DNA from: an uncultured delta proteobacterium | Lineage (GTDB): Bacteria; Desulfobacterota; Desulfuromonadia; Desulfuromonadales; BM103 | Assembly (NCBI GenBank): GCA_963715335.1 | Contig: CAVQRZ010000007.1 | Location: forward strand, 1 to 45,382 | Direction: 5' to 3' | Length of the DNA: 45,382 nt | Shown here: piece by piece, positions 4,196 to 14,037 of the stretch | Layout of the letters: each line of letters starts with the position of its first letter | Numbering within the stretch: the stretch's first letter is position 1 | Notes under the pieces: generated by a model | The model's input: the letters and a program-made list of their open reading frames with translations, nothing else | The model's database searches: none | What the model was told of the DNA's origin: nothing | Position numbers and translations under genes: made by a program

Positions 4196-4271
4196 CAGCG
4201 CATAGTAAAGCAGGACGGCTGAAAGGGCAATTCTCTTGGAGAAGAATGGTTGTCAGGTTAATATCCACGGC

Positions 4272-5520
4272 ATGCAAAGAGCACAGCATAACTCCCGGGA
4301 CCCCGTGGCCGGTCTGCATTACGGCTGGATCATCGTGATGGTCGGGACACTGGTGATTTTTGCCTGCCTCGGCCTGGCACGCTTTGCTTTCGGCATGCTG
4401 TTGCCGTCAATGAGTGCGGGGTTGGGGATCTCATACGAGGAGATGGGTTTTTTGGGGACCGGGAATTTCACCGGCTACCTGGTGGCCGTGGCCATGTCAC
4501 CGTTCCTGCTGCGCCGTTTTACGCCACGCCAGCTGATTGCATCCGGCCTGTTTCTGATTGCTCTCTGCATGTTCGGCATTGCAGCAGGCGACGGCTACGT
4601 GATGATTCTGCTGCTTTACACGGCGGTCGGTCTTGGCAGCGGCTTCGCCAATGTCCCGGTCATGGTCCTGGTCTCCTACTGGTTCCGCAGGGAAAAGCGC
4701 GGTCGTGCGGCTGGGTTGATTGTGGTCGGCAGCGGCTTTGCGATCATTTTTTCCGGATTTGTCATCCCGGTCCTCAACCAGAACTTTGACCAGCATGGCT
4801 GGCGAGTTGGATGGGCGCTGCTGGGGCTGATCGTGGCGCTGGTGGCGGTCGTAGCTGCCGTCCTGGTTCGCAACGATCCGGCGGAGAAAGGATTGTCACC
4901 GGTCGGCCTGATCAGAGAGACCGAATATGATCCGTCGATCGGCAAGGGTCAGTTCAGCCCGCTGGGCATCCTGACTCATCTGGGCGGACTCTATTTTATT
5001 TTCGGTGCAACCTACGTGATCTACGGCACCTTTATCGTCACGACGATGGTCGAAGAATATGCCTATGCCGAGGCCAGTGCGGGAGCCTTCTGGTCATGGG
5101 TTGGTTTCTTCAGTCTCTTCTCTGGTACACTATTCGGCTTGCTTTCAGACAAGATCGGGCGGAAGGGCGGTCTGATGACGGTTTTTACCGTGCAAACCCT
5201 GGCGTACCTGCTGGCGGGTTCCCGGATGGGGACAGTCGGCGCTGTTCGGATCGGTGGTGCTCTACGGTATCGCGGTGTTTGCCATTCCGGCCATCATGGC
5301 CGCAGCGGTCGGTGACTATCTTGGCAAGGCGAGAGCTGCCGCAGCTTTTTCCATCATCACATTCTGTTTCGCCATTGGCCAGACAATCGGTCCGGCGATC
5401 GCAGGCATGATTGCCGAATCAACGGGAACTTTTGCCGGCACTTACCTGGCGGCGGCATTCTTGACAGCGGTTGCGGTAGTCTGGGCAAGGTTTCTGCCGG
5501 AGCCGCATCAGGGCCCCTGA
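4272..5520 (+). CDS. MFS transporter (YbfB/YjiJ-like), split by a +1 frameshift near 5237
   Basis: GLARFAFG and SDKIGRK MFS motifs. ORFs 4236-5315 and 5254-5520 join into a ~12-TM protein if one base is removed in acagtcggcgctg. Confidence 0.8.
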
Positions 5521-5559
5521 TTTCAGTGTCATACTGGGATGGGTTTGCCGATTCAGCAT

Positions 5560-5592
5560 AAAAAAAGGGGCCTTATAACTTCACAAGACCCC
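5560..5592 (-). terminator. Rho-independent terminator on the minus strand
   Basis: Minus strand reads GGGGTCTTGTGAAGTTATAAGGCCCC followed by a T run. Confidence 0.75.
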
Positions 5593-5675
5593 GGAGGCAA
5601 CTTTTTAACCGGCAGGAAATTCGGAGGCTCGCTCGATAACTTTCATCTCTCAACGAACTTCGTGCTCTATTTATG
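5560..5675 (-). ncRNA. Candidate ~115-nt sRNA (or mRNA for the 13-aa peptide MKVIERASEFPAG) downstream of the ColR boxes
   Basis: Bounded by a -10-like TAGAGT (5681-5686) and an intrinsic terminator; contains two GCCTCCG motifs; no long ORF. Confidence 0.4.
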
Positions 5676-5697
5676 GTTGCACTCTAAAGGCTGGGGC

Positions 5698-5735
5698 GTG
5701 AAGGGATTGTGGAATTAATGTGAAAAAAACGTGAA
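5698..5735 (-). promoter_or_regulatory. Array of four OmpR-type direct repeats (ColR box)
   Basis: Minus strand TTCAC-N6-TTCAC-N6-TCCAC-N6-TTCAC with exact 11-bp period. TTCACGTTTTTTTCAC (5720-5735) fits the Pseudomonas ColR consensus as I recall it (YYNASNNYTTTTTSAC). Confidence 0.7.
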
Positions 5736-5738
5736 AAG

Positions 5739-6998
5739 TTATTTTTTGAAAGAAATATTGAAGCAGCAGCCGTTCGGATGATTGTCTTTGACAGAAACCG
5801 TCCACTGCTCCTTCTGGCAGATCCGGTGGACGAGGGAGAGGCCCAGGCCCAAGCCTTGCTGGCTACCCGTTTTGCCGCGATAGAATGGCTTGAAGATTGA
5901 GTCCTTGTCGGTATTTGCAATGCCCGGGCCCGTGTCACAGATTGTGAACCCTGTGGGCCTTGTGACCAGGGTAATCCCTCCCTCGACAGTATGGTAAATC
6001 GCATTGCGCACCAGGTTGTTAATGACAGTGCGCAGCATCGGCACCGGAAACAGCCTGGCCTGCTTACCGTTTGCCCTGGTCTCGTCCCTGACGGTAAAAG
6101 TGATCCCCTTTGCCTCTGCCTGTTGTTGCCATCGTGCCAGATTGTGATTGACGATGTTTGAAAGACTCGCGTTTTCCTGCTCGGTACCCTTGCCCCTGGC
6201 CAGGGTCAGAAATGCGTCGACCAGCTCCTGGATTTCGTTGGCCGCCTGACTGATCGTGTCGATTCGTTGTCGGGAATAGTTGTCAAGCTGGTCCTTGGCA
6301 ATGAGCAGGTCGCAGGAACTTTTGATCACCATCAGCGGCGTGCGCAGTTCATGACTGACATCGCTGGTGAACAGGCTTTCCCGGAGCAAGGATTCCTGCA
6401 GCATGCCGATGGTCCGGTCGAAGGCCTGGGCCAGTCGACCCACTTCATCGTTGGTGTACCCGGTTGAGAGCGGTGGCGCGTCGAGCAGGAGCTGTTCACG
6501 GTTATGCACCTGGTGGGTCAACCGCTGCACGGGCGCGATAATTCTTCTGACCATCATGATGCCGAGGACCATAGAAGCGGCGATGCTCAGGAAAAACCCT
6601 GCAATCACTGTCAGCTGGAGCAGGTTCTCGTGTCGTCGGACAGTGGTCTGCTCCTGCACCAGGTAGAAGGGTCTCTCCTGCTCTTTCTTGATCATGACAT
6701 GGAAGGATATCTCTTCGTCTTCGACCTCGTAAAAACCGGGCTCAAGGTCACGCAGATAATACGGGAGATCTTTCGTGCCGCTGTAGAACTGGGTGCCCAG
6801 GTCAAGGTTGGGCTTTTGTCCCTGCTCGTAATCACCGATGATGTCCGGAAACTTCCTGTTGAGCTCGGCGGTCACCAGGTCCTCCTCGACGATATCGATT
6901 GCAGCCATGATGCCGAAGCTGAAGAGACCGCTGACCACTGCTGTCAGGACCACGAAGGAAAAGATGATTCTTTGGGTCAGGGGAGATTTAAATTCCAT
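5739..6998 (-). CDS. colS: Sensor histidine kinase, ColS-like
   Basis: N-terminus MEFKSPLTQRII resembles ColS. 2 TM, HAMP, H-box SHELRTPL, NLVRNA, DTGPGI, GLGLGL. Confidence 0.8.
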   Translation of the reverse strand: MEFKSPLTQRIIFSFVVLTAVVSGLFSFGIMAAIDIVEEDLVTAELNRKFPDIIGDYEQGQKPNLDLGTQFYSGTKDLPYYLRDLEPGFYEVEDEEISFHVMIKKEQERPFYLVQEQTTVRRHENLLQLTVIAGFFLSIAASMVLGIMMVRRIIAPVQRLTHQVHNREQLLLDAPPLSTGYTNDEVGRLAQAFDRTIGMLQESLLRESLFTSDVSHELRTPLMVIKSSCDLLIAKDQLDNYSRQRIDTISQAANEIQELVDAFLTLARGKGTEQENASLSNIVNHNLARWQQQAEAKGITFTVRDETRANGKQARLFPVPMLRTVINNLVRNAIYHTVEGGITLVTRPTGFTICDTGPGIANTDKDSIFKPFYRGKTGSQQGLGLGLSLVHRICQKEQWTVSVKDNHPNGCCFNISFKK

Positions 6999-7672
6999 CG
7001 TCCGCGGCCTTCAGGCAGTAGCCGATCCCGTGCACCGTGTGCAGCAGAGGGGATTTGAAGGGTTTGTCAATCGTCTGGCGCAGAGTGTGTATGTGGCTGC
7101 GCAGGCTGTCGCTCCCGGGCAGGTGCTCACCCCACAACAGTTCTTCGAGGGCCTCTCTCTTAACCACGTGCGGACTGGCTTTCATCAGTTTTTCCAGCAA
7201 TTTGAGACCGATCGGGCTGAGTTTCAGGAGTACTCCCCTGGCGGCTGACTTCGAGGTTGTTCATGTCGTAGGTCAGATCACCGACGGAGAGCATGTTCTG
7301 CATTCCTGCATGGCCGCGGCGCAGGACGGCTTCGACACGGGCGTGCAGTTCCGGCAGGGAAAAAGGCTTGACCAGATAATCATCGGCCCCGGCCCGGAAC
7401 CCGGTCAGTTTGTCATCGACGCTGTCCCTGGCGGTGAGCATGATGACCGGTGTGCTGACTCTGGCATCCTGACGTAATTTCTTGCACAGGGTGATGCCGT
7501 CCATGCCTGGCAGCATCAAGTCGAGGATGATCAGGTCGAATGGCTGGGTGATCGCAAGGTGCAGGCCGCCCAGGCCATCATAAGCGCAGTCAACCAGGTA
7601 CCCTTGCAGCTCCAGGTAGTCGGCGATGTTCTGCAGAATTTCGGGTTGATCCTCAATGACCAGTATGCGCAT
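6988..7672 (-). CDS. colR: OmpR-family response regulator, ColR-like; +1 frameshift in a G4 run at ~7235-7238
   Basis: Receiver domain (LDLMLP, TARD, KPF) in 7160-7672 and wHTH (SDSLRSHIHTLR..LHTVHGIGY) in 6988-7200. Removing one G gives SRQGVLLKLSPIGLKLLEKL. Confidence 0.8.

Positions 7673-9355: not shown

Positions 9356-9363
<8 letters not shown>
7885..9363 (-). CDS. gltD: Glutamate synthase small (beta) subunit
   Basis: [52 protein letters not shown]. Confidence 0.95.
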
Positions 9364-13923
<4,560 letters not shown>

Positions 13924-14037
13924 GGTCGGTCCTTGATTGTTAGGTACGAAAAAGCCAAAGCGAGGCGTCTCTTGCGGGACAGGGCGCACGTAGAGCCTCA
14001 ATCCCGAAGGTGAGTCGTCTGAGCCCTCAAATCAACT

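Follow-up and report, generated by a model that had tools for sequence, protein, structure and literature searches.

A predicted small RNA gene under a ColR-type box behind colS in Desulfuromonadales, with a porin as candidate target

The 45,382-nucleotide stretch of DNA that was analysed (the window) carries, directly behind a colRS-like gene pair, an element that on sequence grounds is with high confidence a conserved small RNA gene under a ColR-type box. The best explanation, which appears probable, is that the RNA is activated by the ColR-type regulator and blocks translation of a conserved general porin. This proposal rests on sequence for the promoter, the seed, the terminator, the paralogues, the porin site and the presence of Hfq; its remaining steps are inferred. 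The kinase would sense an envelope or metal signal, after which the phosphorylated regulator would bind an array of four boxes and start an RNA of ~115 nt. This RNA would stop at its own terminator and be bound by Hfq at the U tail, and its seed, situated 5' of the terminator, would pair with GGAGGCAA(C) over the porin Shine-Dalgarno, blocking translation. In most members of the family the RNA would have replaced the lipid A/LPS-modifying genes that the same promoter drives elsewhere, so that the output of the strong sites would be RNA only. An amtB-linked outer-membrane gene has the same seed in its 3' UTR, as part of an older, order-wide element. The target candidate, the paralogues, the 3'-UTR form and the seed common to other genes go beyond the original prediction of a ColR-activated small RNA behind colS.

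The element behind colS

The array begins just behind the colS stop codon (5739-5741, minus strand), and the coordinates in Table 1 bear out the four TTCAC/TCCAC repeats with exact 11-bp spacing that had been described there. The full match to the Pseudomonas ColR box that had been noted agrees with the 16-bp consensus published for Pseudomonas (PMC2689224) and is the sole match in the window, where shuffled sequences lead to an expectation of 0.03. A four-box matrix, trained on 16 related sites including the three of this genome, gave a score of 66 for the window site and 63 for two paralogues, while the next site in the 3.3-Mb genome scored 15; weak single boxes may exist elsewhere. No sigma-70 consensus promoter was found by a promoter scan of the element and the -35 is absent, which is consistent with activator dependence. 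The proposal of TAGAGT as a -10-like element is strengthened by the 34 copies described below, all of which (34/34) have TA at +12/+13 and T at +17 past the fourth box.

Table 1. Features of the element and of the regulator genes in the window
Feature	Position	Strand	Remarks
Four TTCAC-type boxes, 11-bp period	5698..5735	minus	5731-5735 TTCAC, 5720-5724 TTCAC, 5709-5713 TCCAC, 5698-5702 TTCAC
Full 16-bp ColR consensus	5720-5735	minus	directly behind colS
-10 element TAGAGT	5681..5686	minus	spacing conserved across copies
Predicted small RNA, ~115 nt	5560..5675	minus	5' end predicted from the -10
Internal hairpin, GAAGUUCG with CGAAUUUC	5616..5661	minus	own genus and close kin only; second CCUCC at 5623-5628
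Conserved seed GUUGCCUCC, complement of GGAGGCAAC	5593..5601	minus	columns T33 T34 G33 C34 C34 T34 C34 C34 of 34 copies
Intrinsic terminator	5560..5592	minus	stem 5567-5592, seven U at 5560-5566
13-aa ORF MKVIERASEFPAG	5605..5646	minus	rejected, not conserved
ColR-like OmpR-family response regulator	6988..7672	minus	one-base frameshift near 7235 (position by eye)
ColS-like sensor histidine kinase	5739..6998	minus	RRHE where Pseudomonas ColS has metal-sensing FExRE

The ~115 nt between the -10 and the terminator lack a long ORF, in agreement with the earlier description, and have a predicted folding z of -2.7. The TTGCCTCC motif stands just 5' of the terminator, which is the clean intrinsic one expected and would end the colRS message too. 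Predicted accessibility of the seed ranges from 0.18 to 0.99 across copies (0.63 in the window copy), and an hfq gene is present in this genome. An Rfam covariance-model search of the element, with OmrA/B, MicF, cuckoo and others included, matched no family. GCCTCCG had been noted twice (5592-5598 and 5622-5628). Both motifs are present, but only the terminator-proximal one is conserved; the second CCUCC is limited to the own genus and reads GTCTCC in G002, L434 and L437. In each of two metatranscriptomes (word shares 0.10 and 0.06) one contig overlaps the RNA interval, covering 5413-5655 at 96% and 5558-5630, respectively. They are not taken as expression because they are assembled contigs, maybe of DNA, and one extends into the adjacent gene.

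The regulator pair and the RNA family

Synteny and best hits agree with the naming of the two-component system as ColRS-like. The pair is of the OmpR type, with no named family above its cut-off. For the regulator the intact G002 copy was compared, and it is 60.8% identical to its counterpart in a Pseudomonas colRS-type locus, the best plasmid match; the window kinase is 42% identical over its full length to the kinase of that locus (L418). The locus, which served as reference rather than P. putida PP0901, carries PAP2, methyltransferase, InaA and DgkA genes. Since gltB, an MFS gene and two porin genes are also split in this assembly, the frameshift in the regulator is likely an assembly error; in all 22 relatives read (of 24) the gene is full length. 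The split genes are located in the window at 4236-5520 (MFS), 6988-7672 (regulator) and 9356-14001 (gltB), and outside it at C1:59,200-60,465 (porin) and C31:64,700-66,528 (DUF3373), a number that points to uncorrected indels. ExxE is kept in all seven kinases from other families and in some of the own family, whereas the window kinase lacks it; with RRHE instead of FExRE, the sensed signal may differ.

Among 151 genomes of the order, 25 carry an orthologue of the kinase. At all seven colS loci from other families a box array behind the kinase is followed by a protein gene: EptA (G043, G028), methyltransferase and Kdo kinase (G079), sulfatase (G116), phospholipid methyltransferase (G040) or a gene that resembles EptA by eye (G104, G082). 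In P. putida, according to PMC2689224, ColR activates PP0903 from a box directly behind colS in a colRS-PP0903-PP0904 layout, and by sequence the arrangement in the other families is the same. The 18 loci of the own family comprise 14 with the non-coding unit, three with protein genes and one (G014) with an array and no seed. A methyltransferase-InaA operon behind colS is absent from the window, and a methyltransferase query found none in this genome (G000); the methyltransferase operon is present behind colS in G079. At the G014 locus (L093) array and -10 are intact behind colS, and a convergent ZupT-like gene (by eye) follows immediately, without a seed being found; this is possibly a recent loss or an antisense transcript.

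Copies of the unit were collected with a seed-terminator pattern, which matched in 30 of 44 family genomes while controls stayed near zero. Out of 53 sites examined, 34 sites in 26 genomes of this Desulfuromonadales family have a U run and an array of at least 16/20; of the other 19, 17 have neither array nor U run, one has five U and no array, and one is the methyltransferase UTR case. The 34 units are 74-238 nt in length. As had been suggested for inspection in relatives, the repeats, the -10 and the CCUCC by the terminator are all kept, with promoter and 3' end fixed and the body variable. The pairing of the terminator covaries as well (97.7% of cells paired and 21 double-sided changes, a level reached in 0 of 500 shuffles). 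Some variants of the seed pair less well, namely CTGCCTCC in G011, TTACCTCC in G017:C105, G160, G153:C292 and L426/L432/L436, and also TCGCCTCC and ATGCCTCC.

A held-out 3'-end model gave six matches outside training besides two UTR cases. Five of the six have an array at 17/20, where 3,000 random windows scored at most 16; the weakest match has no array. A promoter-only scan of metagenomes returned 26 loci (20 distinct, many near genomes already sampled), with seed and terminator 80-178 nt downstream in 22, a position behind methyltransferase in two, and neither in two. In one metagenome contig the four-box promoter lies ahead of a response-regulator ORF (L422), where autoregulation is possible, and in another it lies ahead of an unassigned ORF (L445).

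Three copies are present in this genome, in the window and near 92,500 on C1 and 97,300 on C14, with unrelated flanks, and they are its only strong array sites. Because stand-alone copies with the same promoter lie far from colS, the element is not merely the colRS 3' UTR, in line with the separate RNA gene originally proposed. The two stand-alone copies share a 236-bp unit with 86% identity in these unrelated flanks, as the core of a mobile repeat or MITE might, and the window holds the 13-aa ORF that had been offered as an alternative product. A repeat or a short peptide gene is nevertheless highly improbable and already largely refuted: copies occur only in genera with colS, at one to three per genome, no larger repeat family of this genome matches the unit, and no ORF is common to the 34 copies. 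The peptide reading was rejected, the ATG of the 13-aa ORF being missing in the four other own-genus copies examined.

Eighteen of the 34 copies, the long ones (e.g. L034, L074, L089, L053, L063), contain a bulged hairpin with a near-invariant GGCA(Y)UACCAC. Its pairing covaries (85% of cells paired and 14 double-sided changes, which 0 of 500 shuffles equalled) and it is restricted to this family (7 of 19 family genomes, 0 of 130 others). Such a structure could be the working part of an RNA that binds protein or acts as a sponge. This is highly improbable, however, as the window copy and both paralogues have no such hairpin and yet keep the seed, and as GGA motifs of the CsrA type are on the other strand, opposed to the orientation that the -10 and the U run indicate. 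The conserved part of the small RNA gene common to all copies is its promoter and its 3' end.

The porin as candidate target and the sharing of the seed

All GGAGGCAA-N1-8-ATG sites of ten genomes were screened, which yielded 115 ORFs. The widest cluster was a signal-peptide beta-barrel porin in six genomes, or eight when the frameshifted gene of this genome and a GTG start are counted, followed by an OFA-like MFS gene (5/10 genomes) and hemE (4/10), in both of which the site is kept. In this genome the porin starts at 60465 of contig C1 on the minus strand. The sequence GGAGGCAA forms its RBS at 26 of 28 loci within the family and at 4 of 13 outside it, against 10 of 2,874 starts in this genome as a whole. 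The complement GGAGGCAAC, a 9-nt match to the window seed, stands at three starts in this genome including that of the porin, which comes joint second when 2,868 starts are ordered by their pairing with the window seed. These 41 loci do not include G007 (a contig-edge match with another site, AAGGAGCCAG), a second match in G135, and G020, G109, G124 and G027, in which the start is not readable; also read outside the count were G053, G065, G092 and G095, with the site present, and G028 and G075, with the site absent. A DUF3373 porin was rejected as target, as the site is present in this genome but variable across the family. A duplex ranking over whole regions in one genome was uninformative on targets.

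The porin label is based on one Pfam Porin_4 match above cut-off among four proteins, sub-threshold DESULF_POR1 matches and Atlas look-alikes. OmpJ (GSU3304; PMC1186022) is a possible relative. No solved structure of the porin was found, and a single-sequence fold reached a pLDDT of 31. Its sequence is very variable, yet it occupies one locus in most genomes (shared neighbours in 23/33 and 25/33). The porin leader (G000:C1 60,465-60,530, minus, and orthologues) has a conserved upstream CTCACTGTGGTAGTGGG-like element that is common to very different alleles. In G024 one porin allele type is joined to the leader of the other type, suggesting allele replacement at a fixed locus.

Between the seed of the ColR-box RNA and the porin site no covariation was detected (17 genomes, p 0.17-0.29), because both are nearly invariant. 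Genomes without the ColR-box RNA, and other families too, keep the site, an observation that the seed of the older UTR can account for on its own. The absence of covariation for the RNA itself would also suit an anti-Shine-Dalgarno RNA driven by the ColR box whose main targets are other, or many, mRNAs with strong Shine-Dalgarno sequences, the porin match being inherited from the older UTR element. Any GGAGG is open to pairing with CCUCC, and 450 of 2,874 starts in this genome have one; in several copies there are additional CCUCC motifs (up to three), and the seed variants differ among paralogues. This alternative is rather unlikely: three bases beyond CCUCC, for which a generic anti-Shine-Dalgarno RNA has no need, are near-fixed (T33 T34 G33 of 34), and they are the bases kept by the porin site. 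The porin is retained, with moderate confidence overall, as a main target of the ColR-box RNA. Such repression would fit, by analogy, with P. putida, where ColR represses the porin gene oprQ and fewer porins relieve the lysis of a colR mutant (PMC4074579, PMC3166926).

The seed is not confined to the ColR-box RNA. TTGCCTCC was found ahead of a terminator in the 3' UTR of an amtB-linked Gcw_chp-like outer-membrane gene in G006, G040, G129, G166, G124, G132, G019 and this genome (seed at C22:67,477, UTR near C22 67,450-67,510 on the plus strand, L407). This seed-terminator occurs in at least seven families (also L376, L378, L382-L386, L404, L406, L414-L417), and from its sequence the UTR is a candidate for an order-wide 3'-UTR small RNA against the porin. 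The ColR-box RNA carries the core 8-9 nt of the amtB-linked seed. TTGCCTCC with a terminator also follows the gene for NrfD and two genes named by eye, for an MtrB/PioB-type porin and an OmpA-like protein. Seeds at the tails of other outer-membrane protein messages across the order hint at a shared way to lower the porin. A loose seed-plus-U pattern matched in 191 of 232 genomes, many by chance; among the matches listed, 20 were picked by eye for a hairpin, and 2 of these 20 were reverse complements of an RBS.

Two other non-coding units were observed. A stand-alone unit of ~70 nt ending in TTGCCTCC and a terminator (L387, L388, L389, L391 and L393 in G034, G038, G036, G168 and G170) has a divergent transporter gene on one side, a histidine kinase gene on the other and an extended -10-like motif; four of its loci were scanned against Rfam without a match. 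A second multi-copy family of ~230 nt, with ACCTCCT ahead of the terminator and CCTCC in a loop, is found in G000 at C5:53067, C15:30327, C15:11939 and C19:100878 (minus), with more blastn matches on C28 and C14.

For the amtB-linked seed, 15 genomes were picked by their porin site and the UTR was then read. The four genomes with the standard porin site all have the seed (10-12 nt). In G044 both sides have changed, the porin site to GGAGGAAA and the UTR seed to TTTCCTCC, within a 14-nt exact complement. Eight genomes with a changed porin site are all without the seed, five of these eight belonging to one family and the porin match of G080 not lying at the syntenic locus. G025 is a counter-example, in which the UTR seed is kept while the syntenic porin site pairs over just 5 nt, and in G018 the amtB-linked gene is absent. 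Altogether the seed pairs over 10-14 nt with the porin site of its own genome in nine of ten genomes, and cognate pairing exceeded non-cognate pairing in a permutation over these ten genomes that ignores kinship (p 0.0004 for length, 0.007 for energy). As cognate pairs beat shuffled pairs in this comparison of sequences, the amtB-linked seed very probably targets the porin site.

A 3'-UTR form of the ColR-driven unit itself is found in G015 and G148, where the order is colRS, box, DUF3413 sulfatase, box, methyltransferase and then the seed-terminator. The seed in the methyltransferase 3' UTR is TTGCCTCC in G015 and TTGTCTCC in G148, in which pairing is kept through G-U. Five other methyltransferase copies in the 44 genomes showed no seed-terminator tail, and the RNA bodies showed no likeness to methyltransferase or sulfatase coding sequences. 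Gene loss may have turned the UTR into the RNA, or the genes may be an insertion. The methyltransferases of G015 and G148 group as sisters (99), and their divergence (67%) is close to that of their kinases (70%), in agreement with inheritance; G148 is nested among RNA-only loci, so several losses or a re-insertion are needed. The same loci, together with G014, in which the array is kept and the seed is not, would be expected if the element were a relic, an orphan ColR promoter and terminator left with an inert transcript by loss of the methyltransferase operon. Relics decay, however, while array, -10 and seed are near-invariant across five genera, duplication has carried the units to unrelated sites, and the genome has no strong array site besides them, which makes a relic very improbable.

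With a functional RNA gene as the preferred reading, a wider scheme can be offered tentatively. One seed of 8-11 nt might be reused against one porin RBS across Desulfuromonadales, from separately induced 3' UTRs of envelope mRNAs (amtB-linked channel, MtrB/PioB-type porin, OmpA-like, NrfD) and from stand-alone RNAs; the ColR-type system would have gained the seed via the methyltransferase 3' UTR and then lost the protein genes, leaving an RNA-only regulon. If this doubtful scheme is true, inducing any seed-bearing source would lower the general porin, and a small RNA gene would have originated when the coding sequence separating a regulated promoter from a 3' UTR was deleted, with both stages extant. 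The mRNA-3'-UTR and gene-less forms side by side would be a direct case for the origin of a small RNA gene.

Comparison with known systems

A literature search, with supplements outside its scope (Geobacter start-site and sRNA tables may list a seed-bearing transcript), listed neither a small RNA under ColR nor one in Desulfuromonadales that base-pairs with a target. The element provides for this order a base-pairing small RNA candidate with a named regulator, a seed and a testable target. ColRS has long been linked to outer-membrane protein load with no mechanism to account for it (PMC3166926); in this lineage the RNA may be that link. Like the Pseudomonas ColRS regulon, the system has a ColR box directly behind colS, where relatives in the order keep methyltransferase-InaA or eptA, and the repression of oprQ by ColR (PMC4074579) has a counterpart in the predicted porin target. 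Unlike that regulon, the output here is a predicted non-coding RNA, four boxes stand in a row, and the window kinase is without ExxE.

Several known small RNAs resemble parts of this arrangement. In the GacA-RsmY/RsmZ system the only strong binding sites are small RNA genes, as here, and the RNAs titrate a protein through GGA loops, whereas a single anti-Shine-Dalgarno seed is present here. The CCUCC-type RNAs of Alphaproteobacteria, cuckoo/CcsR and AbcR, also aim CCUCC at the Shine-Dalgarno; here there is no Rfam match, and a single motif lies outside hairpin loops. CpxQ is derived from a 3' UTR. The same applies to UhpU, MicL and DapZ (PMC12704781). With these four the present RNA shares a seed and terminator at the end of an mRNA that shares the signal of the regulator. 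In those cases the RNA is released by cleavage or made from an internal promoter, with the gene retained; here, mRNA and gene-less forms with the same promoter occur in one family, and one seed stands behind unrelated genes. By analogy UhpU would be the nearest evolutionary case, though the gene is kept there.

MicF and MicC, two small RNAs controlled by an OmpR-family two-component system, act by repressing mRNAs for outer-membrane proteins. OmrA and OmrB are activated by OmpR and repress mRNAs of outer-membrane proteins, according to PMC12692685. Control by an OmpR-family two-component system, outer-membrane protein mRNAs as targets (here predicted) and sibling copies are common to all of these and the present RNA. 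In contrast to them, it has no sequence or Rfam likeness, carries its seed at the 3' end by the terminator, has a variable body and belongs to another phylum. What would be new, as judged from sequence, is a variant of two-component-activated, porin-repressing small RNA, the kind itself being known from OmrA/OmrB and MicF.
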